Assembly (NCBI GenBank): GCA_028286665.1
Contig: JAQBRD010000012.1
Span: forward strand, 841 to 64,840
From: Candidatus Tayloriibacteriota bacterium
GTDB taxonomy: Bacteria > Patescibacteriota > Minisyncoccia > Phycocordibacterales > PALSA-1337
Direction: 5' to 3'
Length of the DNA: 64,000 nucleotides
Shown: positions 10,081-45,787 of the stretch, in pieces
Layout of the letters: every line of letters starts with the position of its first letter
Position numbering within the stretch: position 1 is the first letter of the stretch
The notes under the pieces: generated by a model
What the model saw: only the letters and a program-made list of their open reading frames with translations
What the model was told of the DNA's origin: nothing
Database searches by the model: none
Made by a program: the position numbers and the translations under genes

Positions 10081-10156
10081 AATCTGCTTATTTTGCTTCA
10101 TTTATCCCCACTTTTTTGCTCAAAAAAGCCGCATTTCCGTGCTAAACTACTGGGGA

Positions 10157-27212: not shown

Positions 27213-27452
27213 ATGTCTAATGTAGAATTCGATGCTGATGAGCAGGGAGGCGGAAAACTCCAGCGCTTCAGCTCACAATACGCCTCTCAGTACGACGCTC
27301 AGCAGCCGAAACGCGCTTCCGGCATGGCTTCGTTGCTGATCAAGATGCACATCATCGACGATCCTGATCAGGCAAAAAACGTCTACGTCGTCGTCCTCAT
27401 CCTCAATTTCATCGCAGCGGGACTCATCTTCTATTTCTACGTACTCAGATGA
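27213..27452 (+). CDS. Small hypothetical protein with a C-terminal transmembrane helix
   Basis: 79 aa. Its stop overlaps the ATG of the pilin gene (ATGA), implying translational coupling. Confidence 0.4.
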   Translation: MSNVEFDADEQGGGKLQRFSSQYASQYDAQQPKRASGMASLLIKMHIIDDPDQAKNVYVVVLILNFIAAGLIFYFYVLR

Positions 27453-27997
27453 AAACGAATCGAGGCTTCACGCTTATCGAGCTTCTGGTCGTGATTTCAA
27501 TAGTAAGTCTTTTGTCGAGCATCGTTCTCGCATCGCTGACTTCAGCACGTGCAAAGAGCCGGGATACTCAGCGCATGCGCAATTTCCACGAGATCCAGAC
27601 TGCGCTGCAGCTGTATGCGACAGACAATGGCGGAAAGTTTCCTGATTCTTCGGCCATATTGCTCGACGATTTCATCGACAGCGTCGATGTTGCTCACCCC
27701 GGAGGCTGGTCGACGCTCAAGACTCAACTCGGCAGGTATATACGGAAGCTTCCGGTCGACCCGATGAATAACGGCAGATGGAGCGATGCTGTGGGGAATT
27801 ATTCCTACTCGTATTATTACAACGTGAATACCGATTCTGATTATGATCTGGTCGCGAAGCTCGAAAATGCCAGCAGTCCGTATCGGGCGACTGTACGGCA
27901 TTACTCTCGCCATTCGAGCGTCCTTCCGGGGTCCAGCGTGCTTTGGGAAAGCGTCCTTCCGAGCGCCGGTTCCAACCTCTTGTACTCTGATCATTGA
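27449..27997 (+). CDS. Type IV pilin / pseudopilin (prepilin-type N-terminal cleavage/methylation domain)
   Basis: N-terminal MKTNRG-FTLIELLVVISIV is the classic prepilin peptidase site (G|FTLIE). Confidence 0.8.
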   Translation: MKTNRGFTLIELLVVISIVSLLSSIVLASLTSARAKSRDTQRMRNFHEIQTALQLYATDNGGKFPDSSAILLDDFIDSVDVAHPGGWSTLKTQLGRYIRKLPVDPMNNGRWSDAVGNYSYSYYYNVNTDSDYDLVAKLENASSPYRATVRHYSRHSSVLPGSSVLWESVLPSAGSNLLYSDH

Positions 27998-28819: not shown

Positions 28820-31800
28820 ATGGCCGCAAATCGGATCTATTCAAAAAAAGCTTTTTTCAGCATATTTCTTTCTGTGCTTATGCCGCTGCTTCTCCTTTCT
28901 GTTCTGATCTCTGATCCGGCAAGTTCGGACGCTGCGGGGGGCTGCGCTCCTTCCATCTATTGGTATAAGACTGGAGCGGATGCGTACTGGACTACGCTCG
29001 CCGGCAATTGGTGGACGGATGAAGCGCATACTTCGCAAGCGTCAGCATTGCCTGCTTCAGGCGCTTGCGTCGGCACTGTTCCTGACAGTGAAATTCCCAT
29101 CGTCGTCGTCGATGACGTTCCTGAGGTATCTACCCTTGCCGGGATAGATGCGACAGCTACAGGAATCATTTTTACGAGCAGCGACGGTGCCTCGTTTCCA
29201 AACATACATTACGAAATTCAAGGCGATGTCACGCTCAAAGGTTCCGTCGTTCTTCAGGGCGAACTTCACGCTGCGGGCACCATCACATTCGATGGTACGA
29301 GCGTCAATCAAGGCTCGCCGGATCGCAATTCGCTCGTGTTCAGCGGAGCGAGCCATAATGAGGCGAATTTTCCTGGAGGCTCCGGAACATTTACGTTCAA
29401 CGGTTCGAGCTACAATACGGGATTTCTCGATGCAGCCTTCGTCACTTTCAATGGTTCGAGCCATAGCGACGGGGGTATTTTCGGCAGCATAACATTCAAT
29501 GGATCAAGCTACACTACTAACCAGATAGCCGGCGGCAGCCATACAATACTCAATACTGATCATTATGGCGGAGTGGTGCCTATCGGCGGCGTGCTCACGC
29601 TCAATGGAAACCAGAATTGGTGGGCAACTGAAGGAGGCAATGCGTATGATTCGAATGATCAGCTGATCACGTCATTCATATTCAACGGATCAAGCTATCT
29701 GCATCAGGATTCACAAGTCAGCGGCGATGCGGTATTCAACGATTCCAGCCATATCGATGGGAGTGTATCCGGCAATGCGAAGATGAACACAGATTATTAT
29801 GGCGGAGTAGTGCCGACCGGCGGCGTGATCACATTGAATGGGACGCAGGTATGGAATGCACCAGTCACCATGATTACGGATTCGAATGATGAACCGATCA
29901 CGTCAATCATTTTCAATGAATCAAGCTATAATGCGGGCACTGTTAATGCCATGGCCGCATTCAATGGCTCCGCGTATAATGCAGGTTACATATACGGCAC
30001 CTCGACCTTCAATGGCGTCAGCTTTAATGGCGCGGGCGGCACTCCTGGTTCGGTAGCGATTTTCAATGCTTCGAGCAGCAACCGGAGCGATGTTATGGGG
30101 GAAGCAACCTTCAATGACTCAGCTTATAATACCGGCAACCTCTATAACACCGCCACATTCAATGCATCGAGCAGCAACCTGTACGGAGCATCGATCTACA
30201 GTCCTGCGACTTTCAATGGTACGAGCTACAATGAAGGCTACATCGAAGCGCTGACGACATTCAATGCATCGAGCAGCAATGCGGGAGGAGGAATTATCAA
30301 TGGCGATGCCGAATTCCATGGTGTGAGCTATAACGGCGGCAGCGTGACCGGCAGCGCGACATTCAACGACTCGACGTATAACATATTCAACGTTGCGGTC
30401 TTGGCGACATTCAATGACTTCAGCCATAATGACGCAGCTACTGATTTTCCTGCTGATGCGATATTCAATGATTCGAGCTTCAATCAGACCAATGCGGTCG
30501 TGTATGGACATGCGACATTCAATGACCTGAGCTATAACCTGGGAACTATCGATTCGGATGCGACATTCAACACGGCATATTACGGGGGAGTCCTTCCTGC
30601 GGGCGGGCTTTTCACGATAGGCGGCGGAAAATCCTGGTACGGCAGCGTTGGAAATATTGCATTCGGTTCAGACGATGCCACTATCACGGCATTCGCATTC
30701 ATGGGAACGAGCACCAACGAGGGCACGGTTTTCGCGACTGTTCCTGCGAATGCGACGACCACCTTCTATGAAGACCTGTCAGAGAACCATGGCATCGTCA
30801 ATGGAACGAAAGTTCGGCGATACACGTCGAACGCCACGACGACCCGCAATTTCATCACCAGCGGTCCTTGGACGGTGATCGCTGACGGGGCGACGGTCGA
30901 TCTTTCCGGATCGAGTTTCAATGCGACGACGACTTTCCGGACTCTGAATGGCGGAGCGTTCGGGGTGCTTTCGACTGCTTGCGCCGCTCCATTGCCAGGA
31001 ACCCTCTCGTACGTCCTCTCCGGGGATATTTCAGGAAGCTGTACTGTAGCTTCGAGCGACGTCACGATCGATGGAAATGATCATGCGATCTCCGGCAATG
31101 TCATCGCCAACGGCATCGCAAGCGGCGCATCCGGTTTCAATCTGAATCTTGCCCGCGTCACGGTCGGCGGCACGGTTTCTTCGAACGGTGCCAACGGCAC
31201 GATCGGAGGATCAGGTGGCACGATCACCATATCCAGTTCGACGGTTGCGGCGGTGAGAGCGAACGGAGGAAATGGAACAGGGAATGGCGGCAACGGAGGA
31301 ATCATCGCACTGGTAGATTCGACGAGTACGGCATTGAGCGCGAATGGAGGCAATAGCTCGAATAACGGAGCGGGAGGTTCCGGCGGCACGATAAGTCTCG
31401 AAAACTCGACATCAACCTCGATCTCGGTCTCTGCGGGAACGGACGGTCCGAATAAGAATCCAGCGCAAGATTCCGGCCATGGCGGCACAAGCCATGCGAC
31501 AGATACCGCGCCTCCGGTCATAACTCTGAATGGAAGCAGCGCCGTCTCGATCGCCTTCGGCGGCACGTATGTCGAATTGGGCGCGACTGCGGTGGATGCG
31601 GTTTCAGGCTCGCGTACCGTGGTCATTTCCGGATCGGTGAATACTGCCGTTGCCGGAGTCTATGTGAAAACATACACTGCTGCTGACGCTGCCGGAAACA
31701 GCGCAAGCAAGACGAGAACGATCACCGTGCGTGCCCAAGCTACAGCAGCCAATACTAATCCTCCAGGAGGAGCTGCGACGCCAGCGCATGCTTCATCGCG

Positions 31801-32515
31801 ATCATCCGGTTCTGCTGCCATGCTTCCGACGCTCAATTTGGCTCCGCTTCCTTCATTCAGCAATAGCGTTTCAAACAATCTCGGAGTCTCGCATCTCGGC
31901 AACCCTCTCGAAGGCCTCAAGGCTTTCAGTTCGCTGAAGCTTTCCACGCTCTCGTTCAAGTTCGTGCCGCAGATCTCGACATTCGTCTTCGCGCCGCTTC
32001 CAGCATCGGTTGCGAAGATACTCGGCAGATCTCCGAAGCTGTCGAACCTCGTCGCATCCGTCGGCGTCTCTCGCGAGCAGGATCTCGTCGCGCTTCTCCG
32101 GAACCCGATCCTGATCCCGAAGCCTGCTGCAGGCGACATTCCGCCAGGACTCTTCATCGCGACTGCCTCCAGCACGCCGCTCGAGCTGTATCTCGCCGGA
32201 GACGCTGAGCATCGTCTTGCGGAACTTGTCCGGACGCAGCCGGGAACTGTTCTCGATATCGCATTCGTGCCGCTGAGCAAGAGCAGCGTACAGGCCAAAT
32301 TCCGCGGCAGCCCGATCAAATTCTTCGCATCGCGCACGGCAGAGGTGCATGCAGTAATCGCTGCTCCTGATGTTCCCGGCAGATATTTCATGACTACTTC
32401 CGCCGCTCCATTTCCGCTCATCATCGAAGTTGTCGCACTGAAGCAGCAGTCTGCGCCGGCGAAGCCTGAGGCGAAAGGGAAGTTCGGCAGCTGGCTGAGC
32501 GGACTGTTTCATTAA
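28820..32515 (+). CDS. Large secreted protein with tandem about 20-aa N-x-S/T-sequon repeats, a Gly-rich block and a DUF5011-like Ig domain
   Basis: Signal peptide. At least 20 units of the form ATFN[GDA]SSYN-G between about 29390 and 30560. A Gly-rich GGxGG region at about 31080-31440. The segment DTAPPVITLNGSS...GATAVDAVSG...YVKTYTAADAAGN...TRTITV matches the bacterial Ig-like DUF5011 pattern. TGCTAAAAT lies 9 nt upstream. Confidence 0.8.
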   Translation: MAANRIYSKKAFFSIFLSVLMPLLLLSVLISDPASSDAAGGCAPSIYWYKTGADAYWTTLAGNWWTDEAHTSQASALPASGACVGTVPDSEIPIVVVDDVPEVSTLAGIDATATGIIFTSSDGASFPNIHYEIQGDVTLKGSVVLQGELHAAGTITFDGTSVNQGSPDRNSLVFSGASHNEANFPGGSGTFTFNGSSYNTGFLDAAFVTFNGSSHSDGGIFGSITFNGSSYTTNQIAGGSHTILNTDHYGGVVPIGGVLTLNGNQNWWATEGGNAYDSNDQLITSFIFNGSSYLHQDSQVSGDAVFNDSSHIDGSVSGNAKMNTDYYGGVVPTGGVITLNGTQVWNAPVTMITDSNDEPITSIIFNESSYNAGTVNAMAAFNGSAYNAGYIYGTSTFNGVSFNGAGGTPGSVAIFNASSSNRSDVMGEATFNDSAYNTGNLYNTATFNASSSNLYGASIYSPATFNGTSYNEGYIEALTTFNASSSNAGGGIINGDAEFHGVSYNGGSVTGSATFNDSTYNIFNVAVLATFNDFSHNDAATDFPADAIFNDSSFNQTNAVVYGHATFNDLSYNLGTIDSDATFNTAYYGGVLPAGGLFTIGGGKSWYGSVGNIAFGSDDATITAFAFMGTSTNEGTVFATVPANATTTFYEDLSENHGIVNGTKVRRYTSNATTTRNFITSGPWTVIADGATVDLSGSSFNATTTFRTLNGGAFGVLSTACAAPLPGTLSYVLSGDISGSCTVASSDVTIDGNDHAISGNVIANGIASGASGFNLNLARVTVGGTVSSNGANGTIGGSGGTITISSSTVAAVRANGGNGTGNGGNGGIIALVDSTSTALSANGGNSSNNGAGGSGGTISLENSTSTSISVSAGTDGPNKNPAQDSGHGGTSHATDTAPPVITLNGSSAVSIAFGGTYVELGATAVDAVSGSRTVVISGSVNTAVAGVYVKTYTAADAAGNSASKTRTITVRAQATAANTNPPGGAATPAHASSRSSGSAAMLPTLNLAPLPSFSNSVSNNLGVSHLGNPLEGLKAFSSLKLSTLSFKFVPQISTFVFAPLPASVAKILGRSPKLSNLVASVGVSREQDLVALLRNPILIPKPAAGDIPPGLFIATASSTPLELYLAGDAEHRLAELVRTQPGTVLDIAFVPLSKSSVQAKFRGSPIKFFASRTAEVHAVIAAPDVPGRYFMTTSAAPFPLIIEVVALKQQSAPAKPEAKGKFGSWLSGLFH

Positions 32516-32961: not shown

Positions 32962-32996
32962 AAAATGCCGTCGCATGCATGCGACGGCATTTTCGC
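32962..32996. terminator. Palindromic (bidirectional) terminator
   Basis: AAAATGCCGTCGCATG|CATGCGACGGCATTTT, a perfect 16-bp inverted repeat with A and T flanks. Confidence 0.75.
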
Positions 32997-35640: not shown

Positions 35641-36585
35641 TTAGAGTCCGAGAGCGGTCGTAATACTGAACTGAGTTGTCGTTCGCGTGTTTCCTGCAGC
35701 ATCCTTCGATTCCGCTACCATATAGTACTTGGTCGATGTGCTGAGTCCTGAGAGGGCAATCTCGTGGTTCGTCACAAGAGAAGCATTATCAACGCGTGCG
35801 GTGCTTGTCGAATTCACATTGACTGGATTCGTCGCTGAGAAATAGACTCGCGTCGTCGCAGCTTCATTCGTGTTCCAGAAAACCTTCGCTGATGTCGATG
35901 CTACGGTCGCGTACAGGCTGGTCATGACTGGTGCTCGGGTGTCTGAAACCGTCGAGCTTGCCTGAGTCGTGAAAGAGAATTGGCCAGATGTCGTCGCATT
36001 TCCGGCGTTGTCTCGCACTTCGATGAGCGCATAGTACGTAGTGCTTGCGCTGAGGTTTGAAATCGTTACGTCGTGATTTTTCGTCATCTCATTTCTCACG
36101 GCGATTCGCGTAGTCGAAGCTGTCTTCGATGCCGGCGTACTCGTGCTTACGAAGATCTTCGCATCAGATCTCTCATTCGTCGACCATCGAATTTCTGCAG
36201 CACTGCCTGTGGTCTGAGTCACGATGGCGCTTATGACCGGCGCGAGCGTATCGTGGGCATCGCGGTCCTCGTTGTTTCGATTTTCATTGTCGCGATCATC
36301 ATGCGTGCGGTCTTCATTTTGAAATTTATTTGCGATGCCGTTCGGAATATGGCATCGGCCTGACATGTCTGCTGCAGTGACTGCTCCGTTGAGCTTGATC
36401 CATCCAGGAGCGATGAGATGTCCGTACGCATGGAAGCAGCTTTCTTTCTGGAGCACTTTGTCAGCGCCTCGGTCATTGCCCTTGCCATTCTCCTTTGCGA
36501 AGCTGACGCTCGGGCTCATCGCGATCGTCGCTGCGAGCGCTGTTATGGCTGCAAGCTTGCTGAAAGTCATATTGTGTTTATTCAT
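35641..36585 (-). CDS. Secreted protein with two fibronectin type III-like domains
   Basis: Signal peptide MNKHNMTFSKLAAITALAATIAMSPSVSFA. Two FN3-like units (DT-APV...W-T-E...LS-STTYY...D-AGN...F-T). The start was trimmed from the ORF-track start (36762) to Met60 (36585). Confidence 0.65.
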   Translation of the reverse strand: MNKHNMTFSKLAAITALAATIAMSPSVSFAKENGKGNDRGADKVLQKESCFHAYGHLIAPGWIKLNGAVTAADMSGRCHIPNGIANKFQNEDRTHDDRDNENRNNEDRDAHDTLAPVISAIVTQTTGSAAEIRWSTNERSDAKIFVSTSTPASKTASTTRIAVRNEMTKNHDVTISNLSASTTYYALIEVRDNAGNATTSGQFSFTTQASSTVSDTRAPVMTSLYATVASTSAKVFWNTNEAATTRVYFSATNPVNVNSTSTARVDNASLVTNHEIALSGLSTSTKYYMVAESKDAAGNTRTTTQFSITTALGL

Positions 36586-36733
36586 GATGTTTGGGTTATT
36601 GGTAATGGTACAAGGCCGATGACGCGGGGCAGCGGCAATCCTTACATCGACAAATAATGGATTATGTTGTATTTTAGTAAATGTAAGAAAGTCATTCCAA
36701 GGACGTCTGCCCATATAGGGTCTCCACATACTG

Positions 36734-37264
36734 ATGAACTCAAGCCTCGAAAAAGCATTCATAGACCTCTATGCAAAGGAAGCCGACGCTGTCTTTCGCT
36801 TCTGCCTTATGCGCACATCGAATCGCGACGTGGCAAGGGATCTCACGCAGGAAGCATTCACGAAGATCTGGACAAGCATGCAGGACGGCATCGATATTCA
36901 GAATATGCGGGCATTCGTATTCAAGGTCTCAAGGAATCTCCTGATCGACTGGTACCGGAAGAAGAAGCCGTCATCTCTCGATGCGATGGCAGATGAGGAT
37001 ATCCATGGTGAGATCGCTCTCGTCGAGGACGGCGCCGAAATGGCCGCAGAGATGAGCGCGGAAGCGAGATTCCTCATAGCGAAGATCGGGGAACTGGAAC
37101 CGGCGTATCAGCAGGTCGTCTATCTCAGGTTCGTCGAAGACTTGAAGCCGCAGGAGATCGCAGATGCTCTCGGAGAATCGGTGAATGTCATATCGGTGCG
37201 GATAACGAGAGGGATCGAGAAGCTTCGGCAGATGACAGGATATGAGAAAGAAAATTCCAAATGA
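36734..37264 (+). CDS. ECF-family RNA polymerase sigma factor
   Basis: Region 2 (FRFCLMRTSNRDVARDLTQEAFTKIW) and region 4 (VVYLRFVEDLKPQEIADALGESVNVISVRITRGIEKLR). Confidence 0.85.
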   Translation: MNSSLEKAFIDLYAKEADAVFRFCLMRTSNRDVARDLTQEAFTKIWTSMQDGIDIQNMRAFVFKVSRNLLIDWYRKKKPSSLDAMADEDIHGEIALVEDGAEMAAEMSAEARFLIAKIGELEPAYQQVVYLRFVEDLKPQEIADALGESVNVISVRITRGIEKLRQMTGYEKENSK

Positions 37265-37902
37265 AAAACTTCAATCTACAAAACGCGATACAGGATTTCA
37301 AGAAAGCAGGCCTCTCTCAGGATGAAAAGAGGGATATGCTGGCGCGCATCATGCAGAAGCCGGCAGCGCTTCCGATCAAGTCTCCTTTCCTCACCTTTTT
37401 TCCGAGGAGGATGGCATATGCGATGGTCGCTCTGTTATTTGTTGCAGGGAGCGTCGGCACATCATATGCAGCGGAAAGGGCCGTTCCGGGAGACGCGCTC
37501 TATCCGGTGAAGATACATGTGAACGAATCGCTCAGAGGTGTACTCTCAATCAAGAAAGAGGCGAAGATAGAATGGGAAGCGGAGAAAGCCGAACGCCGCC
37601 TTGCAGAAGCTCGCGTGCTCGCGTCGCAAGGCAGGCTCGATGAAGGTGCGCGCAAAGGCATCGAAACTAAGTTCAATCTCCACGCTGAAAAGTTCAGCGA
37701 AATTTCCAATGAAGATGGAAGAAGCGACACTAACGAGAAGAACGCCGAGCATCTGCATGATAAGTTCGAAGCCGGAATAAAGGCTGAGACCGGCAAGCTC
37801 GACCTCATCAAGGGTTCCTCCGGCGATGTCCAGAAGCATGAGATCCAGGAGCTTGAGAATGCCATCAAGGGAAAGATGCAGAAGATACAGAAGCATATAT
37901 GA
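37261..37902 (+). CDS. Putative anti-sigma factor (DUF5667-like, single-pass membrane protein)
   Basis: ATGA overlap with the sigma gene. One transmembrane helix, then the PGDALYPVK motif typical of DUF5667 proteins that sit downstream of ECF sigma genes. Coiled-coil C-terminus. Confidence 0.55.
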   Translation: MKNFNLQNAIQDFKKAGLSQDEKRDMLARIMQKPAALPIKSPFLTFFPRRMAYAMVALLFVAGSVGTSYAAERAVPGDALYPVKIHVNESLRGVLSIKKEAKIEWEAEKAERRLAEARVLASQGRLDEGARKGIETKFNLHAEKFSEISNEDGRSDTNEKNAEHLHDKFEAGIKAETGKLDLIKGSSGDVQKHEIQELENAIKGKMQKIQKHI

Positions 37903-38474
37903 AAAAAATCACCGTATTCAATTTCATAAGTGTCGACGGCTACTACGCGGGACCGAATGACGAGATCGATTGGTTCAAAGCGATCGGCAAGGATGCTGAA
38001 TATGATGCATATACGCATAGCCAGTCGAGCTCGAATCACACGCTCATGTTCGGGCATACGACGTACGATATGATGAAGAGCTTTTGGCCGACGCCGATGG
38101 CGATGGAGAGCGATCCGCATATGGCGAAGATCATGAATGAAAGCATGAAGATCGTCTTCTCGAAAGAGCTGCAGCACTCGGACGATATCCCGGGCTGGGA
38201 CGATGTCATCATCCTCCGCGATATCCGCGCCGAAGAGATCTTGAAGCTGAAGCGGGAATCGGCACATGATATCACGATCCTCGGCAGCGGCAGCATCGTG
38301 CAGCAGCTTTCGAACCTCGGCCTGATCGACAGCTATCAGCTCATGGTCGTTCCGATCGTGCTCGGTGCTGGCAAGAGCCTTTTTGCGAATGCGAAGAGCT
38401 TGAATCTGAAATTGCTCGAGGCGAAGTCGTTCAAGAACGGGGTCGTTTCGCTTCAGTACGAGCCGATGAGGTAG
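37899..38474 (+). CDS. Dihydrofolate-reductase-like protein (RibD C-terminal domain family)
   Basis: ATGA overlap with the previous gene. Segments VFNFISVDGYYAG and ILGSGSIVQQL match the RibD_C fold. Confidence 0.65.
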   Translation: MKKITVFNFISVDGYYAGPNDEIDWFKAIGKDAEYDAYTHSQSSSNHTLMFGHTTYDMMKSFWPTPMAMESDPHMAKIMNESMKIVFSKELQHSDDIPGWDDVIILRDIRAEEILKLKRESAHDITILGSGSIVQQLSNLGLIDSYQLMVVPIVLGAGKSLFANAKSLNLKLLEAKSFKNGVVSLQYEPMR

Positions 38475-38520
38475 ATTCCTGATCAGGAATCCAGAGCTTT
38501 GAAAGCGTGCCTGATATGCT

Positions 38521-40296
38521 ATGCTTCATGCAATACGGCTTATGAAAATATCTCTCGATTCCGCCCGCCATACCAAGCCTTTAGGCTTCTATCTCAAGGT
38601 AAACCGTCAGGACCTCGGCTGGTTCTTTGGCAATGCATCGCTGTATGCGCTCGGTCAGGTCATCATGCTCACGGCGACATACATGCTTGGCAGGACGATC
38701 GACGCGCTCTCGAATGACCCGACGCATGCAAAGTTTTTCGCATGGATGTTCATCGCTTGCGTCGTCGGCCATGAAGTCTCGTGGCGCTTCGGCCATATGT
38801 GCGAAATGCAGATACTCGGACGCATCCGCAGGAATTCGCAGAAGGCATTGTTCGATCACACGACATCGCTCTCATTCGGCTATTTCGCCGATCGTTTCGC
38901 GGGAGAGATCGCGCACAAGATCTCGAGCATCGCTGACAATTTCGAGCGCATGAATATCATCATGACCAACGGCTTCATCGAGGATAGCGTCCTCATTCCG
39001 CTTACCGCTATCGCTCTCGGCATGATCCATTGGTATTACGGAGCATTCGTCATCGTCTGGGGAATCGTCATGATTTTCGGCTCGCGGTTCCTCGCGAAAG
39101 AGATGAACCGCCGCTCAGAAAAGCTCGCTACCGAAGAGGCAAAGACCATAGGCACCATCGTCGATGTCTATGGAAATATCGGCACGGTGAAAGTATACGG
39201 GAAAGCAGGGGATGCGAACCGGGCGCATCTGCAGATAGATGCGGAACGCCGAGCGTATGCCCGATTCGGCTGGTGGGATGTCGTCATGTTCCATTTTCAA
39301 GGATGGTCGATCATCATTTTGTGCTCAGGACTCGTGCTCATCACGAGCATCTTGCACGGTCAGCATGCGATAACGGTAGGACAGATCGTATTCGTCTCGA
39401 CGGCAGGACTTCGACTTTTCAGCATGTCGTGGGAGATGGCACGCAATATCGCCGACTTCATCAGGTATCGCGGCGAATGTTCCCAGAATCTCGCTGATCT
39501 CGTAGTCGCACCCGCGATCATCGACGGCAATCACGCTCAGGCGCAAGGCAAGGAAGCGATCATTGTCCATTACGATCATATCGCATTCGGATATGTCGAG
39601 GAGCGTCCGATACTCGATGATTTTTCAATCACGATCAAGCCAGGCGAAAAAGTGGGCATCGTCGGACTCTCGGGAGCGGGGAAGACGACGTTCGCAAACC
39701 TCCTCCTTCGATTCTTCGATCCGCAATCAGGCACGATCCGCTTCAATGGCACTGATATCCGCAATTTTACCCAGGAATTCCTTCGTTCGCACATCTCGTA
39801 TATCTCACAGGATACATCTCTTTTTCATGCGACGATATCTGAAAACATTGCCTATGGTTCTTCGGCAGCATCTGAGGAGAATATCGAAACAGCTGCCCGG
39901 CTCGCATACGCCGACGATTTCATCATGAAGCTGCCGCACGGCTACAAGAGCATCGTCGGCGAGCGCGGAGTGAAGCTTTCTGGCGGACAACGCCAGCGGA
40001 TCGCCATCGCCCGCGCACTTCTCGCCGATCGGCCGATATTCCTCCTCGATGAAGCGACGAGCGCGCTCGATAGTGACAGCGAAGGGAAGATACAGAAAGG
40101 CCTCTCGATCCTCATGGAGAACAAGACGGTCATCGCCATCGCCCACCGCCTCTCGACGTTGTCTCATATGGATCGGATCATCTTCCTCGAAAATGGAAAG
40201 ATTGCCGAAGACGGAACTCATGAGCAGCTGCTTGCGCAGAAAGGCAGGTATGCCGCACTGTGGCAGATGCAGGCCGGTGGTTTCCTTCCAGCTTAG
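38521..40296 (+). CDS. ABC transporter, fused permease/ATP-binding protein (MsbA-like exporter)
   Basis: Six-helix transmembrane domain. Walker A GLSGAGKTT, signature LSGGQRQR, Walker B IFLLDEATSALD. Confidence 0.9.
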   Translation: MLHAIRLMKISLDSARHTKPLGFYLKVNRQDLGWFFGNASLYALGQVIMLTATYMLGRTIDALSNDPTHAKFFAWMFIACVVGHEVSWRFGHMCEMQILGRIRRNSQKALFDHTTSLSFGYFADRFAGEIAHKISSIADNFERMNIIMTNGFIEDSVLIPLTAIALGMIHWYYGAFVIVWGIVMIFGSRFLAKEMNRRSEKLATEEAKTIGTIVDVYGNIGTVKVYGKAGDANRAHLQIDAERRAYARFGWWDVVMFHFQGWSIIILCSGLVLITSILHGQHAITVGQIVFVSTAGLRLFSMSWEMARNIADFIRYRGECSQNLADLVVAPAIIDGNHAQAQGKEAIIVHYDHIAFGYVEERPILDDFSITIKPGEKVGIVGLSGAGKTTFANLLLRFFDPQSGTIRFNGTDIRNFTQEFLRSHISYISQDTSLFHATISENIAYGSSAASEENIETAARLAYADDFIMKLPHGYKSIVGERGVKLSGGQRQRIAIARALLADRPIFLLDEATSALDSDSEGKIQKGLSILMENKTVIAIAHRLSTLSHMDRIIFLENGKIAEDGTHEQLLAQKGRYAALWQMQAGGFLPA

Positions 40297-40315
40297 TTAA
40301 AAATAATAAAATACC

Positions 40316-40702
40316 ATGAACACCATCGCATATTTCGAAATACAGGCATCTGAACCTACGAAGGCCGTAGATTTCTATGGCGCAGTCTTCGGCTGGAAAT
40401 TCGCGAAGGAAGAACTTGTCCCGATCGAATACTATCGGATGACGGACACCGGCGGCGCAGGTATCATGGGTGCAATTCTCAAGCGTCCCGCAGCGACACC
40501 GCCGCTCGAATGTGGAACGAATGCTTTTACTTGTTCTGTGCAGGTTGAAAGTTTCGATCAGACAGCCGCAGTCATTCTCAAAAACGGCGGCCAGGTCGCG
40601 CTGCCGAAATTCGCCATTCCAGGCCGATGCTGGCAGGGCTATTTCATCGACATCGACCACAATGTCTTCGGCATATTCCAGGCAGACGAGCGTGCGAGAT
40701 AG
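40316..40702 (+). CDS. VOC / glyoxalase-bleomycin-resistance family protein
   Basis: Paired beta-alpha-beta-beta-beta modules (YFEIQASEP...FYGAVFGW). Confidence 0.7.
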   Translation: MNTIAYFEIQASEPTKAVDFYGAVFGWKFAKEELVPIEYYRMTDTGGAGIMGAILKRPAATPPLECGTNAFTCSVQVESFDQTAAVILKNGGQVALPKFAIPGRCWQGYFIDIDHNVFGIFQADERAR

Positions 40703-40740
40703 TGCTTCCATTTTCAGGCGAGATTTGCCATACTTATTAT

Positions 40741-41127
40741 ATGAAACCAAAAACAATAAAAGTCACGTATTGGATCGCAACGGTTCTCTTCGCGCTCTTC
40801 ATGGTATTCTCGGGAGTTTCTGAACTCATGATGACTGAAGAAGGAAAGCAGATCATGATCCATCTCGGATATCCGATCTACATGCTGTACATGCTCGGCA
40901 TCGCGAAGATCCTCGGCACGATCGCGCTTCTGCAGACGAAGTATCAGGTCATCAAAGAATGGGCGTACGCCGGTTTCGCGATCGATATTCTCAGTGCTTC
41001 CATTTCAATGTTTTTCGTGGGAGATAATGTCGGCTTGTCTCTCATGCCGCTCATCTTCCTCGTCGTCATGTTCATCTCGTACGGCTTCTGGAAGAAAATG
41101 GAACGGTTGAAGACTGCATCCGTGTAA
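40741..41127 (+). CDS. DoxX-family membrane protein
   Basis: Four-helix, 128-aa DoxX-like hydrophobic protein. Start trimmed to ATG 40741. Confidence 0.6.
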   Translation: MKPKTIKVTYWIATVLFALFMVFSGVSELMMTEEGKQIMIHLGYPIYMLYMLGIAKILGTIALLQTKYQVIKEWAYAGFAIDILSASISMFFVGDNVGLSLMPLIFLVVMFISYGFWKKMERLKTASV

Positions 41128-41160
41128 TGATGCATTTATTCTGTCGGCCTCTTCGTATTC

Positions 41161-43803
41161 ATGGATACGACCGCCAGCAGACAACCTTTTCTTGTCGACG
41201 TGCTCGGCAGAAGGCAGAAAATCCACTTGCGGGTTCTCATAACTCTCTGGCTGTTGAGCGTATCCGCATTCTGGATCTGGTGGCTGTCACCGCTGCATAT
41301 GGGAGACATGGCAAGGTTTGCGATAAACACCGTCATCCTGGCATGGAATTCGCTGCTGCCCGGTTTCTATTTTTATTTCCTGAACCGGATGAAGAAGCAG
41401 AATCCGGATCTGAAGATTCCTCGGCATTGGAGGATCGCCATGGTCGTCACCCGCGCTCCGTCGGAGCCTTTCGAACTCGTGAAGAAGACGCTCATCTCCA
41501 TGAAATTGCAGGACTTGCCGCATGATACGTGGTTGGCTGACGAGGATCCTACTCTTGAAATACGAGAGTGGTGCGCGAAGCACGGAATATGCATCTCGAC
41601 ACGCAAAGGGAATGCCGAATATTATCAGCAGAATTGGCCGAGAAGGGAGAAGTGCAAGGAGGGCAATCTCGCCTATTTCTACGATCATTACGGCTATCGG
41701 AGATATGATTTCGTGTCGCAGCTCGATGCGGATCATGTTCCAAGTCCGGGCTATCTGCATGAAATGATCTTGCCGTTCGTCGATCCGAAAGTCGGGTACG
41801 TTTCGGCGCCGAGCATATGCGATGTGAATGCACAGGGAAGCTGGGCCGCCCGCGGGCGGCTTTTCGCCGAGGCGACGCTTCACGGAACGCTTCAGGCCGG
41901 ATACACCAATGGCTGGGCGCCGCTTTGCATCGGCTCTCATTATGCGGTGCGCACGGAAGCGCTGAGCGAAATCGGAGGACTCGGCCCGGAGCTCGCCGAA
42001 GATCATTCGACCACGCTCATGATGAATGCCTTCGGCTGGAAGGGAGTCCATGCGCTGAATGCTGAAGCGCATGGCGATGGCCCGACCACTTTCATGGATT
42101 CGATGACGCAGGAATTCCAGTGGGCGAGGAGCCTCGTCATGCTCCTGCTTACAGTCACTCCGGGATGCTGGAAGCGCCTCACTCCGAAATTCCGATTCCA
42201 GTTCATTTTCTCGCAGCTCTGGTATCCTATTTTCGGAGTACTGATGCTTGCGGCATACATGTCTCCGCTGGTAGCGGTCATGACCGGCGTACCGTGGGTG
42301 CATATTTCATATATTCAATTTCTCGCCTATTCTTTCTTTCCGTTCACGACCGCTCTGCTCGTCGTCGCTTGGGTGAGGAGACAGCATCTGATGCGTCCGG
42401 CCGATGTGAAAATATTGAGCTGGGAAGGCGCAATCTTCCAGCTCGTCCGATGGCCGTGGGTGCTATGGGCGACATGCGATGCTATCCGCACTGCGGTCTT
42501 CAAGAAGAAATGCGTCTGGCGCATCACTCCCAAGGGCCGAGTCGAAGAGGTCGCGATTTCCCTCAAGGCAATATGGCCGTACGCATCGATAGTCTGCCTC
42601 TCCGGCCTGAGCGTGCTTCTCGCGGTGAGGAACCCTGAGATAAAGGGATATTACTGGTTCGCCTTCATCAATTGCTTCGCATATCTCGCCTGCATCGGGA
42701 TCATCATCGTCCGGCATGTGTTCGAAAATAAGATAGCGATGAATTTCAGGAACGTTTTCCTGCGATGGGGGAAACATCTCGTCATGATGCTCATCCTGAT
42801 GTTCCTCACCGGCTCGGCAGTGTACGTGCATGGAGAAGACGCGTGGAGCGGAATCACTTGGAATAGCGGCTCGATCCTCAACTGCCGGAACTTTTCTTCC
42901 ATCTGCGAGCTCGGCGGGACGACGACGCTGGTTGCTGAAAAGAATCGCATCGGATTCGGCGCATACGATCCATCGGAAGTCTTTCAGGGCAAGCAGTTGG
43001 CCATCGAGCACGTATTCATTTCCTGGAATTCGTATGGGAAAGGCAGCATCGCGCGCGATCTCGCTGGAATCGAAGGCCGCGGAAGAGAGCCGCTTCTGAC
43101 CATCGAGCCGTGGCTGGATCCGTCGGTGAGCAGCAGCACGGATGTGCTGAGCGATGTCGCAGCCGGAATATACGATAGCAAGATCAATGACATGTGTTCT
43201 GAAATAGCAGCTTCCGAAGCTCCCGTATTCGTCCGTTGGGGACATGAAATGGAAACGATAAGCAACCGAAGCCGTTATCCGTGGGCAGTCGAAGATGCGC
43301 CGAAGTATCAGCGGGCGTATCGGCATTTCGTAGAGCAATGCAGGGCAAGCGCGAAGAATGTCCTCTATGTCTGGTCGCCGGCTGGAGATAAGGGTTTGGA
43401 AAGATATTGGCCTGGCTCCGAGTATGTCGATTCCGTCGGAATCTCTATCTATGGATTCCCGGAGTGGGATCTGCATTATTTCAAGAAAGTCCGCTCATTC
43501 GCGGAGATAATGAAGGAAAAATATGCCCGAGTCGAAAAGTATCGGAAGCCGATAATGATCGCGGAGCTCGGCGTGGCAGGCGACAAGGCGCATCAGCTCA
43601 CATGGATGCTCATCGCGCTCGACGAGCTGCGCGGCTTTCCGCTCGTCACGAATGCGGTATATTTCAATTCTCTGGATAATCCGAAGGCTTGGGGCGATGG
43701 CTATTCGACGCCGGACTGGAGCATGGATCCGAAAGCCTTTCCCACGACGATGCCGATCACTGCGCCGATGATCGCTCCTGCAGCGAACTCCGAGAACCAG
43801 TGA
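41161..43803 (+). CDS. Fusion protein: processive family-2 glycosyltransferase (cellulose-synthase-like, QxxRW) with transmembrane region and a C-terminal GH26-like glycoside hydrolase domain
   Basis: GT2 motifs (D...QLDADH... and QEFQWARS, the QxxRW motif). At least six transmembrane helices. In the C-terminal domain, VRWGHEME and IMIAELGV match the GH26 acid/base (HE[MF]N) and nucleophile (ITELG/D) motifs. Confidence 0.75.
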   Translation: MDTTASRQPFLVDVLGRRQKIHLRVLITLWLLSVSAFWIWWLSPLHMGDMARFAINTVILAWNSLLPGFYFYFLNRMKKQNPDLKIPRHWRIAMVVTRAPSEPFELVKKTLISMKLQDLPHDTWLADEDPTLEIREWCAKHGICISTRKGNAEYYQQNWPRREKCKEGNLAYFYDHYGYRRYDFVSQLDADHVPSPGYLHEMILPFVDPKVGYVSAPSICDVNAQGSWAARGRLFAEATLHGTLQAGYTNGWAPLCIGSHYAVRTEALSEIGGLGPELAEDHSTTLMMNAFGWKGVHALNAEAHGDGPTTFMDSMTQEFQWARSLVMLLLTVTPGCWKRLTPKFRFQFIFSQLWYPIFGVLMLAAYMSPLVAVMTGVPWVHISYIQFLAYSFFPFTTALLVVAWVRRQHLMRPADVKILSWEGAIFQLVRWPWVLWATCDAIRTAVFKKKCVWRITPKGRVEEVAISLKAIWPYASIVCLSGLSVLLAVRNPEIKGYYWFAFINCFAYLACIGIIIVRHVFENKIAMNFRNVFLRWGKHLVMMLILMFLTGSAVYVHGEDAWSGITWNSGSILNCRNFSSICELGGTTTLVAEKNRIGFGAYDPSEVFQGKQLAIEHVFISWNSYGKGSIARDLAGIEGRGREPLLTIEPWLDPSVSSSTDVLSDVAAGIYDSKINDMCSEIAASEAPVFVRWGHEMETISNRSRYPWAVEDAPKYQRAYRHFVEQCRASAKNVLYVWSPAGDKGLERYWPGSEYVDSVGISIYGFPEWDLHYFKKVRSFAEIMKEKYARVEKYRKPIMIAELGVAGDKAHQLTWMLIALDELRGFPLVTNAVYFNSLDNPKAWGDGYSTPDWSMDPKAFPTTMPITAPMIAPAANSENQ

Positions 43804-44390
43804 ATGCTCATCGAGACGCCGAAGCCGATATAGAAAGCATAGAGCAATGCGCCGCATCGCGCGATAGCGCGCTGCCGAGCGCTCGCGCTTTTCGGATAGA
43901 CATATATGAATGCGAAAGCCATGGCGAAGGCGATCGTCGTGTGCGATGACGGCCAGCCCCAGAATACGCCGTGCTTCAGCAAGCCGAAATTAAAATTGCC
44001 GCTGATGTCGGTGATGACGTTATGGATATCCGGCTGCACTCTGCCGGTGAGGGCTTTGTATGCGGATGAAATGACCGAACCGATGATCGCTGCTTGCGCA
44101 AGCGCATATCCGGCATTCAGTGCAGCGGTTGATCCCGATGCGCGCTTCCGCAGCCAGCCGATCGCGAGCATGCAGATCGGCACTATGATCGGAACAAGTC
44201 CGCCGATAACGACCGCAGGGAAGAATATGCGATCGAGTCCGCTGCTTCTCGTTGCAAGGAAATATTGCCAGTCGAAACCGCTCGCCACGATGATATAGGT
44301 GAGCGCGATCGCAGCGAGATGCCATGGCAGATTGCGCATTGAGAAGCAGCGGATGATATTTCGGGGAAGCGAATAGAGGAATCTTTTCAT
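43701..44390 (-). CDS. PAP2-family phosphatase (membrane)
   Basis: PAP2 motifs KALTGRVQP, PSSHTT and SMSIHWFSEF. Its 3' end overlaps the convergent GT2-GH26 gene by about 100 bp. Confidence 0.7.
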   Translation of the reverse strand: MKRFLYSLPRNIIRCFSMRNLPWHLAAIALTYIIVASGFDWQYFLATRSSGLDRIFFPAVVIGGLVPIIVPICMLAIGWLRKRASGSTAALNAGYALAQAAIIGSVISSAYKALTGRVQPDIHNVITDISGNFNFGLLKHGVFWGWPSSHTTIAFAMAFAFIYVYPKSASARQRAIARCGALLYAFYIGFGVSMSIHWFSEFAAGAIIGAVIGIVVGKAFGSMLQSGVE

Positions 44391-44404: not shown

Positions 44405-44440
44405 AACAAATAAAAAACTTCCAGCCGGGATGGCGGGAAG
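44405..44440 (-). terminator. Rho-independent terminator downstream of the tRNA-like gene (- strand)
   Basis: On the - strand: CUUCCCGCC-AUC-CCGGCUGGAAG followed by UUUUUU. Confidence 0.6.
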
Positions 44441-44600
44441 TGGTGCAGGAGGCGGGAATCGAACCCGCATGGATGGGGGGTCACACCCTTTGAAGGAAGC
44501 TAGAAGAAGTAGTCAAAAACCTTCATCGGTAGCAATTTAGCCGTCCCGCTTGCGCGTGCATCAACGCAGTTGATGTGCTCTGCCGTTAAGCTACTCCTGC
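44441..44600 (-). tRNA. tRNA-like gene with an 85-nt insertion (intron-containing or disrupted tRNA; anticodon uncertain, candidate UGC)
   Basis: On the - strand, the 5' half is canonical: GCAGGAG-UA-GCUU-AACGGCA-GAGC-A-CAUCA-ACUGCGU-UGAUG, with U8, A9, A14, G18G19, A21 and A26. The 3' half is canonical too: GCGGG-UUCGAUU-CCCGC-CUCCUGC-A-CCA, and the acceptor strands are perfectly complementary. The halves are 85 nt farther apart than in a standard tRNA. Confidence 0.5.
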
Positions 44601-44679
44601 ATCTTCCATGGAAACATACCCTACGTGTAACTATATGTCAATGGATATCATTGAGTAAGCTGCCTGCTATAATGAGCCG

Positions 44680-45723
44680 ATGAAACAGATCCTAAAAAGC
44701 GCATTTGTATTGCTTGCCATCGCGACCTTCTTCCGCATCAGCGTTCCGCAGGTTTCAGCTCATGAGGTATATGTACTCGATCATTCAGAAATAAATACCG
44801 CCATGCAGGCGCCGCGTCCCGATTTCATGCAGAGCATGCGGGATCACCTCGGACAGTTCATCGTATGGGGCCTGATCTTCACGATCCTGATTCTCATTGT
44901 CTTCTACGTATCGATAAGCCGTCCCATCGAGCGCCTCATCGATCCTGCGCTCATGTATCTGAAGAAATTCGCTCCGCACGTAGCTCAGGCGACCCTCGGC
45001 CTCGCGCTCATGGCAAGCGGCTACTATCATGCGGTCTTCGGAATCGAAATTCCGCTCGGTCCGACATTCGGCTCGCTCGAGCATCTCGTCTCATTCTGCC
45101 TCATCGTCGCCGGCGCGATGCTCGCGTTCGGGCTTTTCCCCCGGATCGCAGCGATGTTCACGGTCGCGTTCTTCATCGGCCTCGCAGTCCATTTCGGAGC
45201 ATACATGCTCAATTACGCGACGTATCTCGGAGAAGCGATCACCATCGCGATCTTCGGCGGGGCGCATACGATCTTCGCGAATAAGCGGCTGTCGCAGATC
45301 GCTGCGCGAGTCATCAGTCCTTCATTTCATGCGTACAAGTTCCTGATCATGCGCGTCCTTTTCGGGTCCTCGCTCATCTATGCCTCGGTATATGCGAAAT
45401 TCATCCATGGCGCGCTCGCGCTCGAAGTCGTCTCGAAATACAATCTGACGCATTATTTCCCGTTCGATCCGGTCTTCCTCGTGCTCGGCGCGATGCTCAC
45501 CGAAATACTCCTCGGAGTCTGCTTCGCGATCGGATTCGAGATTCGCTTCGCTTCGCTTTTCTTCCTCGCATTCCTCTCGATGTCGCTCGTCTTCTTCGGT
45601 GAAGCTGTCTGGCCGCATATCATCCTCATCGGAACTGCGCTCGCCATGTTCCTTCACGGATATGATCGCTTTACATTCTCTGTGCAGATGGAGAAGGACA
45701 AGAGCCTCGAGCCGGTGCTCTAG
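44680..45723 (+). CDS. Hypothetical polytopic membrane protein with signal peptide
   Basis: Signal peptide plus about eight transmembrane helices. TGCTATAAT lies 6 nt before the ATG. Confidence 0.6.
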   Translation: MKQILKSAFVLLAIATFFRISVPQVSAHEVYVLDHSEINTAMQAPRPDFMQSMRDHLGQFIVWGLIFTILILIVFYVSISRPIERLIDPALMYLKKFAPHVAQATLGLALMASGYYHAVFGIEIPLGPTFGSLEHLVSFCLIVAGAMLAFGLFPRIAAMFTVAFFIGLAVHFGAYMLNYATYLGEAITIAIFGGAHTIFANKRLSQIAARVISPSFHAYKFLIMRVLFGSSLIYASVYAKFIHGALALEVVSKYNLTHYFPFDPVFLVLGAMLTEILLGVCFAIGFEIRFASLFFLAFLSMSLVFFGEAVWPHIILIGTALAMFLHGYDRFTFSVQMEKDKSLEPVL

Positions 45724-45787
45724 CGAGAAAGTCCAGCTCTGGATAACTCGCGTGTACGTTTCCTTGCGAATAGGCTATACTTATCTC

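Follow-up and report, generated by a model that had tools for sequence, protein, structure and literature searches.

A putative single-chain ApsS/ApsE-like synthase-hydrolase encoded in a Patescibacteria genome

A dedicated hydrolase or lyase is part of nearly all synthase-dependent exopolysaccharide systems, and whether it serves for release of the chain, control of its length or clearing of stalled polymer is debated; BcsZ, PssZ, PslG and ApsE are examples of separate hydrolases to which trimming, length setting or release of the product is ascribed. A 64-kb stretch of contig JAQBRD010000012.1 (64,000 nucleotides, hereafter the window) from a Candidatus Tayloriibacteriota bacterium, a member of the candidate phyla radiation (CPR, Patescibacteria), encodes an 880-aa protein (41161..43803, plus strand) in which a family 2 glycosyltransferase (GT2; Pfam Glyco_trans_2_3, Glyco_transf_21 and Glyco_tranf_2_3) is fused to a family 26 glycoside hydrolase (GH26; Glyco_hydro_26). 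With a probability of about 0.72, this protein is a single-chain ApsS/ApsE, that is, a trimming synthase-hydrolase, and the genes surrounding it do not constitute one functional module.

The closest described system is the APS operon of Sinorhizobium meliloti, published in the order uxs1-uxe-apsS-apsH1-apsE-apsH2 (SMb20458-63) with cuxR divergent (PMC7902896, PMC12560781). The cluster directs an arabinose-containing, Congo red-binding polysaccharide, and is activated by CuxR/c-di-GMP and repressed by MucR (PMC7902896, PMC12560781); an arabinose-containing product is stated for S. meliloti and S. fredii only (PMC7902896, PMC12560781). The gene names were mapped to domains via the annotated pSymB record, in which a divergent AraC-family gene is followed by genes for a UDP-glucuronic acid decarboxylase, a GalE-type epimerase, a glycosyltransferase of 621 aa, a DUF995 protein, a GH26 protein of 325 aa and another DUF995 protein. 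A tblastn search of plasmids found matches in 77 Sinorhizobium and 34 Rhizobium replicons. Both halves of the fusion protein are homologous to products of this operon, the N-to-C order of the domains is that of the genes, and the QEFQW motif and the catalytic glutamates of GH26 are shared. However, in S. meliloti the two genes are parted by a DUF995 gene, whereas the Patescibacteria protein is one polypeptide, and the APS host is a diderm alphaproteobacterium, unlike the CPR host. CPR bacteria probably have no outer membrane.

The ApsS-like part comprises residues 1-565 (41161..42855, plus strand), delimited by ApsS homology, the match to cellulose synthase BcsA, invariant motifs and the helices of an AlphaFold2 model. 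In a BLASTP comparison with S. meliloti ApsS, residues 8-588 shared 50.5% of 584 aligned positions (580 bits, E=0). Residues 160-399 match BcsA among PDB sequences (E 2.6e-14), and the fold is similar as well, with Foldseek E-values of 4e-18 to 1e-14 over about 560-580 aligned columns and entries 9b8v and 4p00 among the matches. This kinship with BcsA, the closest solved GT2, is one reason to consider that the product is a beta-glucan (cellulose-like, beta-1,3 or mixed-linkage) that is cut by the GH26 domain in the manner of a lichenase-type glucanase. However, identity to BcsA in the fold alignment is only about 18%, as compared with 50% to ApsS, and the best NCBIfam match of the fusion protein, CelA, reaches 65.8 bits against a cutoff of 699 bits, both of which argue against such a product. 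No NCBIfam family corresponds to the fusion protein.

The invariance of residues was judged on an alignment of 22 homologues. The GT-A motifs, D127 (in LADEDP), D189-A-D191 and E280-D281 (in ELAED), are invariant in this alignment and coincide with those of BcsA; Q317, E318, Q320 and W321 are likewise invariant. The segment Q317-E-F-Q-W321 (42109-42123) aligns with Q-R-G-R-W of BcsA, so that the glutamine and the tryptophan are retained and the arginine is replaced by glutamine. The GT2 was earlier labelled as QxxRW-type, and this label has to be corrected to QEFQW, since both the BcsA alignment and the 22-homologue alignment read so. ApsS itself carries TQEFQWSRS, and QE[F/Y]QW, found in 117 of the 120 best database relatives, is common to the Patescibacteria protein, ApsS and the whole family, another point against a beta-glucan synthase. 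The replacement of the QxxRW arginine throughout the ApsS family (117/120 of P0001-P0120, and ApsS in L081) is an observation in its own right; in BcsA this arginine contacts the pyrophosphate of UDP. The Romboutsia mixed-linkage glucan synthase RiGT2 was considered as an identity and set aside, since its QxxRW motif, its PilZ domain and the lack of a GH26 mark it as a different kind of enzyme.

An AlphaFold2 model built on the 22-sequence alignment (mean pLDDT 83.8) contains seven long hydrophobic helices (residues 17-41, 50-75, 342-375, 384-407, 468-487, 492-522 and 529-565) and two amphipathic interface helices (311-339 and 421-447). The order is thus two N-terminal transmembrane (TM) helices, the GT-A domain, and then the interface helices together with five further TM helices. 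Lysine and arginine number 28 in the loop holding the GT domain and 10 in loop 408-467, as compared with 0, 0 and 1 in loops 42-49, 376-383 and 488-491. With the GT domain in the cytoplasm and five helices after it, the GH26 domain would lie outside. It is therefore predicted to be on the outer face of the membrane, the chain being carried across by TM7, and the helix positions and charge distribution agree with the extracytoplasmic location that had been put forward for it. An extracytoplasmic GH26 is common to both systems, reached through a signal peptide in ApsE and through TM7 here; the free-standing ApsE has a typical Sec signal peptide. The helices encoded 3' of the GT domain form, in the model, a predicted transmembrane channel, a feature of processive membrane-integrated GT2 synthases of the BcsA, HAS and chitin synthase type. 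TM7 and the GH26 domain are connected by a linker (residues 566-595, 42856..42945, plus strand), whose residues 569-595, with pLDDT below 50, are the sole low-confidence stretch between the two parts, and which differs in length and sequence among homologues.

The cellulose system is alike in having a processive GT2 with an integral channel and a hydrolase across the membrane. However, BcsA has four TM helices before the GT domain where the Patescibacteria protein has two, the latter lacks PilZ, BcsB and BcsC and has QxxQW instead of QxxRW, and BcsZ is a separate periplasmic GH8 endoglucanase, whereas here the hydrolase is a covalently fused GH26. In the mechanism proposed, a BcsA-type processive GT2 with a cytoplasmic catalytic domain and its own channel would polymerise a UDP-sugar and extrude the chain, and the tethered GH26 would cut the emerging polymer, serving for trimming, length setting or release.

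The ApsE-like GH26 domain occupies residues 596-860 (42946..43740, plus strand), as defined by Pfam, the alignment with the lichenase Lic26A, Foldseek and ApsE homology. It matches PF02156 (Glyco_hydro_26) with 30.6 bits against a cutoff of 20.2 bits, which upholds the GH26 assignment made earlier. Residues 591-853 are 34.6% identical to ApsE (BLASTP, E 2e-49). Among PDB sequences the C-terminal 289 residues match best Lic26A of C. thermocellum (phmmer, E 8e-11) and next a beta-1,3-xylanase (E 7e-9), mannanases being matched much more weakly. Lic26A entries were also found by Foldseek, with E of about 5e-14 and target-normalised TM-scores of 0.72-0.75 (0.75 for 2v3g). In the phmmer alignment with Lic26A (2bvd) RWGHE is placed on RPLHE (E109) and IMIAE on IIAE (E222); E109 and E222 are known as the acid/base and the nucleophile of Lic26A, which in GH26 come after strand 4 and strand 7, respectively. 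The motifs VRWGHEME and IMIAELGV, read in the earlier note as those of the acid/base and the nucleophile, are therefore in register with the Lic26A residues. The acid/base E696 (codon 43246-43248) and the nucleophile E802 (codon 43564-43566) are invariant in the 22 homologues, and ApsE has the counterparts RWGQEMD and MVAELG. Judged from these alignments, both putative catalytic glutamates are intact.

Lic26A (the CelH GH26 lichenase) and the Vibrio beta-1,3-xylanase Xyl4 share the (beta/alpha)8 fold and both aligned glutamates with the domain. However, identity is about 24% and they are secreted degradative enzymes, whereas the domain described here is tethered to a synthase and presumably acts on the polymer of the organism itself. 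The glucomannan synthase gmsA (RL1661) of R. leguminosarum was considered because of the Rhizobium homologues and the mannanases in GH26, and was rejected, being described as the uppE orthologue of a unipolar polysaccharide cluster.

The GH26 domain might instead act as a transglycosylase or as a polymer-binding or anchoring module, which could for example pass the chain on to an acceptor in the cell wall. The members of GH26 are retaining enzymes, which are able to transglycosylate; the tether holds the domain at what is predicted to be the exit of the channel; and GH domains fused to a synthase have precedents in the NdvB-type cyclic beta-1,3-glucan synthases (GH17-GT2) and in Cgs (GT84-GH94), where they act as transglycosylase or phosphorylase in the formation of cyclic glucans, NdvB-type fusions using the GH domain for transglycosylation. 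These enzymes differ from the Patescibacteria protein in GH families, domain orders and topologies. However, hydrolytic GH26 enzymes show exactly the same conservation of both glutamates and of the His/Gln before them, and most GH26 proteins of the family are free and bear signal peptides, which fits a soluble periplasmic glycanase. Transfer or anchoring in place of hydrolysis is thus very unlikely.

The single-chain arrangement had been described as uncommon, a view that did not survive the database search. Among 8000 candidates scored with the fusion protein at least 3100 had E<=1e-5, one of them identical to the query. The best 120 were mostly of 830-960 aa, with 95-99% query coverage and 39-47% identity, so that proteins of about 880 aa prevail among them, and 106 of the 120 have the GH26 acid/base motif. 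Among these 120 are clusters of 315 (Burkholderia cepacia), 171 (B. multivorans) and 65 (B. cenocepacia) member sequences, along with Caballeronia, Crenobacter, Nostoc, Synechocystis, Pannus and Chloroflexota. When one genome per GTDB species was scanned, at least 590 relatives were found. The fused proteins of the Burkholderia cepacia complex and Caballeronia (e.g. P0056, P0054 and P0016), and those of cyanobacteria, Chloroflexota, Saccharibacteria and Collierbacteria, have the same architecture (about 860-900 aa) and the same invariant motifs, with 40-47% identity over 96-98% of the query. In the literature searched, with and without Burkholderia, no published characterisation of any GT2-GH26 fusion was found.

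A search with the GH26 domain alone against 1.84 billion representatives gave 3165 matches at E<=1e-3 and 243 at E<=1e-30. The best 150 of these were mostly free-standing proteins of 270-460 aa, together with about 20 tandem GH26 proteins of 514-577 aa and 8 fusions of at least 850 aa. The tandem proteins (P0122, P0126, P0132-P0137, P0140, P0141 and others), with two GH26 stretches, represent a third ApsE-like architecture.

The genomic arrangement was compared in 80 species-level homologous loci, in 78 of which the distance between the GT2 gene and a GH26 homologue is no more than about 4.5 kb. A test of reading frames divided these 78 into 17 fused, 41 adjacent but split and 20 separate within the cluster, where the class of one locus (L009), counted among the 17, is uncertain, as direct reading shows a stop-start junction. 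Many alphaproteobacteria have a gene for a GT2 of about 620 aa and, near it, a separate one for a GH26 of about 320 aa. In a rough neighbour-joining tree of the GT2 part, which carries no support values, fused genes fall in at least five separate groups, namely Burkholderia/Caballeronia, Saccharibacteria, Chloroflexi with Collierbacteria, Cyanobacteria, and the Patescibacteria gene described here. The latter groups with split-gene loci of Verrucomicrobia, Microgenomates and a gammaproteobacterial metagenome-assembled genome, and not with the fused clades. Fused forms thus appear polyphyletic, and the GT2-GH26 fusion is, as judged from these comparisons, a recurrent minority arrangement within a large family.

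In four loci a single stop codon, with a start codon directly after it, is all that parts the in-frame GT2 and GH26 genes: TAA ATG in L009 (11591-11596), TGA TTG in L015 (11534-11539), TAG GTG in L055 (5393-5398) and TAA GTG in L071 (11699-11704), each one mutation away from a fusion. In these loci the GT2 ends before the helix equivalent to TM7, and the GH26 has its own hydrophobic N-terminus. Loss of the junction stop codon in such loci would create a fusion. Same-frame stops were found in 17 of the 41 split loci, as compared with about 14 expected, which is no enrichment.

Two of the loci compared have features of the assemblies. The APS cluster on a contig labelled Bacillus subtilis strain SK6B4 (L053) is nearly identical to those of a Rhizobiales bacterium (L057) and of Pseudochrobactrum (L058), so that this assembly is probably mislabelled or contaminated. 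In R. leguminosarum CC278f (L035/L036) the APS locus is present at both ends of one scaffold, which is probably the overlap of an unclosed circular assembly.

The nature of the polymer has to be considered in the light of the genes linked to the synthase. Clustering of open reading frames (ORFs) in the 80 loci showed the GT2 gene to be preceded at short distance, in 59 of them, by one or two paralogues of about 330-360 aa. UDP-arabinose is supplied by the UDP-xylose synthase Uxs1 together with the UDP-xylose 4-epimerase Uxe. Uxs1-like proteins (at least 40% identity) are encoded in 55 loci and Uxe-like proteins in 61; DUF995 and CuxR occur in 39 and 18 loci, respectively, all of which are in the Proteobacteria-labelled part of the list. 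The fused genes of Burkholderia and Caballeronia have uxs1 and uxe 1-3 kb upstream, and the fused form is therefore part of an APS-like cluster there, unlike in the window, which has neither gene. By analogy with the characterised relative, which makes an arabinose-containing polysaccharide, the product is most likely an APS-like pentose (arabinose)-containing polymer and not one of the beta-glucan type; the earlier note had presumed a beta-linked polymer. An inverting GT2 using UDP-beta-L-arabinopyranose would, from stereochemistry, give alpha-L-arabinopyranosyl links; these are analogous to beta-D-galactosyl links, and on the same grounds a retaining hydrolase of clan GH-A would be plausible.

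Several observations weigh against an identification with the APS system. No homologue of Uxs1, Uxe, DUF995 (apsH1/apsH2) or the AraC-type c-di-GMP sensor CuxR was found in the 64-kb window by tblastn at E<=1e-3, unlike in the APS operon; the identity of the sugar is therefore the weakest step of the assignment. The nearest GT2 relatives (L020, L022, L024, L032 and L033) are also without linked uxs and uxe genes, so that the donor sugar of this sub-clade may differ. The best solved GH26 relatives are the lichenase and the beta-1,3-xylanase, with no arabinanase among them, and no biochemical activity of ApsS, ApsE or fused homologues was reported in the literature examined.

Some of these points are consistent with a beta-glucan product. 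The closest solved GH26 is a beta-1,3-1,4-glucanase, Lic26A, genes for UDP-xylose and UDP-arabinose are absent from the window and from the loci of the nearest relatives, and CPR genomes have limited sugar-nucleotide metabolism. However, the identity to Lic26A is too low for transfer of substrate specificity, and uxs1 and uxe accompany the synthase gene in the larger part of the family. Together with the low identity to BcsA and the QE[F/Y]QW motif, this makes a beta-glucan an improbable product. Compared with it, a further proposal is more doubtful, namely that ApsS-type enzymes are a distinct class of UDP-pentose-specialised GT2 (QxxQW) and that the CPR fusion, where no UDP-xylose or UDP-arabinose genes go with it, makes a different surface polymer, with GH26 as an obligatory release or transfer step, possibly for attachment of an episymbiont to its host. 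The preferred reading of the fusion protein is that of an architectural variant of the genetically characterised APS system, as indicated by the homology of both halves.

The gene of the fusion protein is the last of seven on the same strand. Gene assignments were based on a Pfam profile scan and the ORF list; all ten ORFs were found at or near the positions reported earlier, and every gene and domain call made then was confirmed. The first gene (36734..37264, plus strand) encodes an extracytoplasmic function (ECF) sigma factor (Sigma70_r2 and r4_2; TIGR02937, 85 bits). It is followed by a gene for a single-pass membrane protein of the DUF5667 family (PF18915; 37261..37902, plus strand), a putative anti-sigma factor with a hydrophobic segment at about residues 51-71, whose start overlaps the stop codon of the sigma gene by 4 bp, and by a RibD_C/DHFR-like reductase gene (78.5 bits in Pfam; 37899..38474, plus strand), which overlaps the anti-sigma gene by 4 bp. 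Next are genes for an ATP-binding cassette (ABC) exporter half-transporter (ABC_membrane and ABC_tran; 38521..40296, plus strand), a VOC/glyoxalase-fold protein (PF00903, 25.2 bits; 40316..40702, plus strand) and a DoxX_2 membrane protein (PF13564, residues 50-150 of the longest ORF; 40741..41127, plus strand). The exporter is MsbA-like rather than an equivalog, its best NCBIfam match, MsbA, reaching 330 bits against a cutoff of 602 bits.

The most likely start of the DoxX gene is not 40627 but an in-frame ATG after the VOC stop codon, at 40741, and with this start the apparent overlap with the VOC gene disappears. The tight or overlapping junctions described earlier therefore hold for the 4-bp overlaps at the first two junctions, while the DoxX/VOC overlap does not; the other junctions are gaps of 19-46 nt.

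A gene for a PAP2-family membrane phosphatase (PF01569; 43701..44390, minus strand) is convergent with the fusion gene. The overlap of these two genes, previously estimated at about 100 bp, measures 103 bp (43701-43803, 34 codons) and is kept in a close relative, L082, at 2838-2940; within it lie the codons for the disordered end of the fusion protein (residues from 863 on, with pLDDT below 50) and for the C-terminal helix of PAP2, a glycine zipper.

On the other side, a gene for a secreted FN3-like protein (35641..36585, minus strand) is divergent from the sigma gene. The top Pfam match of this protein is Pur_ac_phosph_N, fn3 scoring lower, and its N-terminus, MNKHNMTFSKLAAITALAATIAMSPSVSFA, resembles a signal peptide. 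The labels MsbA and FN3 are, as far as profile matches indicate, superfamily-level assignments and not orthology.

The seven genes had been proposed to form a single envelope-stress exopolysaccharide module, that is, one operon under the control of the ECF sigma factor and devoted to a glycopolymer, with the ABC exporter, DoxX and PAP2 as accessory proteins. This is suggested by the shared strand, the two 4-bp overlaps and the short gaps between the genes, and by the lack of a strong terminator between them: a scan for sigma-70 promoters and terminators gave weak matches only, with one weak hairpin at 41115-41134. The shared strand and tight spacing would possibly allow co-transcription from the sigma promoter, which also counts against the separation of the fusion gene from its neighbours. 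However, no homologue of the ECF sigma factor, DUF5667, RibD_C, VOC, DoxX or PAP2 was found within 10 kb of the synthase gene in the 80 loci, and the ABC matches near the synthase there are generic ATPase matches. Moreover, BcsA-type synthases translocate their own product, so that an ABC exporter and a lipid carrier are both dispensable to them.

Two close relatives, L082 (81% identity) and L083 (75% identity), come from one metagenome. In L082 a RibD_C gene (84% identity) ends 60 nt upstream of the fusion gene, so that sigma-side genes adjoin the synthase in two genomes, which favours one operon, and a PAP2 copy (73% identity) has the same 103-bp overlap. However, L082 has no counterpart of the window regions 38465-41172 (ABC, VOC and DoxX) and 44407-45732 (a 347-aa DoxX-like ORF), and in L083 the neighbours are entirely different and PAP2 is absent. 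The flanks of L082 are otherwise collinear with the window, and both missing blocks involve DoxX-type membrane proteins, the 347-aa ORF having a weak DoxX match. Thus, as far as gene order indicates, ABC-VOC-DoxX is a block that varies, the window having it and a close relative lacking it, and linkage to the fusion gene is kept by RibD_C on the upstream and PAP2 on the downstream side alone, and in L082 only.

The sigma/anti-sigma pair, in turn, is found elsewhere in other company. Homologues of DUF5667 are few (24 at E<=1e-5). In another Patescibacteria genome (L084, L085) genes for FN3-like (58% identity), sigma (75%) and DUF5667 (53%) proteins have the same divergent arrangement; this trio is followed by a convergent ParA-like gene and not by a synthase gene. 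A META-domain gene comes after the DUF5667 gene (67% identity) of L086. The sigma pair of these loci adjoins no GT2-GH26 gene, which does not support the tie between the pair and the synthase that had been assumed, and the pair appears from its gene context to be a conserved unit with the divergent FN3-like gene.

The distribution of promoter-like motifs is in line with this arrangement. An ECF-like pattern has four matches in the window, as compared with 0.61 expected, although it was derived from the first of them, which is therefore not independent. GTAAG-N15-17-CGTC itself occurs at three places only, 36621-36645 (minus strand), 36683-36707 (plus strand) and 32983. One motif (36682..36707, plus strand), TGTAAGAAAGTCATTCCAAGGACGTC (GTAAG-N16-CGTC from 36683 on), faces the sigma gene and is probably autoregulatory; another (36621..36646, minus strand), TGTAAGGATTGCCGCTGCCCCGCGTC (TGTAAGGAT-N-CGTC), faces the FN3-like gene. 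Their counterparts in L084 are the sigma-facing GTAAGGAAACCATTCCTCACTCGTC, with the same spacing, and the FN3-facing TGTAAGGATGTCCAACCTGCCCCGTC, in the same place. The intergenic regions between the two genes, 36586-36733 here and 9305-9453 in L084, thus have two opposed GTAAG-N16/17-CGTC motifs in two Patescibacteria genomes, within conserved blocks that could be aligned. The matches at 32983 and 56925 were rejected as promoters and taken as chance, having no plausible downstream gene, and the second lies inside a coding ORF.

The FN3/sigma intergenic region therefore looks like a bidirectional pair of ECF-dependent promoters, and the earlier placement of the FN3-like gene at a presumptive sigma-dependent promoter is supported by the opposed motifs and their retention in L084. 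The secreted FN3-like protein is likely the main member of the regulon, and the most probable targets of the sigma factor are the FN3-like gene and the operon to which the sigma gene itself belongs. A pattern scan of the window gave no ECF-like match upstream of the ABC, DoxX or fusion genes; read-through from the sigma promoter to the synthase gene is possible but unsupported. With well-placed ECF-like motifs confined to the FN3/sigma region, with neighbours not recurring in the 80 loci and with ABC-VOC-DoxX missing in L082, control of all seven genes as a single envelope-stress operon is unlikely.

The remainder of the window encodes MurB, SecA, Obg, GatB, TGT, L25 and a class II aldolase, an ordinary chromosomal CPR-like content. 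Three very large ORFs are located at 10139-17611 (2490 aa), 17680-21456 (1258 aa) and 28820-32515 (1231 aa), of which the second has a Peptidase_S74 intramolecular-chaperone domain and the third a bacterial surface Ig-like domain, and a type IV pilin-like gene is present at 27449-27997. These very large surface ORFs and the pilin-like gene suggest an elaborate cell surface, as expected of a CPR episymbiont.

The annotation of the gene is thus to be corrected to an ApsS-ApsE fusion that is not a member of a sigma-controlled seven-gene module. The ApsS clade is extended to the Burkholderia cepacia complex, cyanobacteria and several CPR lineages, where its occurrence without genes for UDP-pentoses is of interest. 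QxxQW represents a testable sequence signature of a GT2 clade with genetic ties to an arabinose polymer. Finally, the same synthase and hydrolase, existing as one protein or encoded by abutting, adjacent or few-kb-apart genes, form a natural series in which the coupling of polymer synthesis and hydrolysis may be studied.

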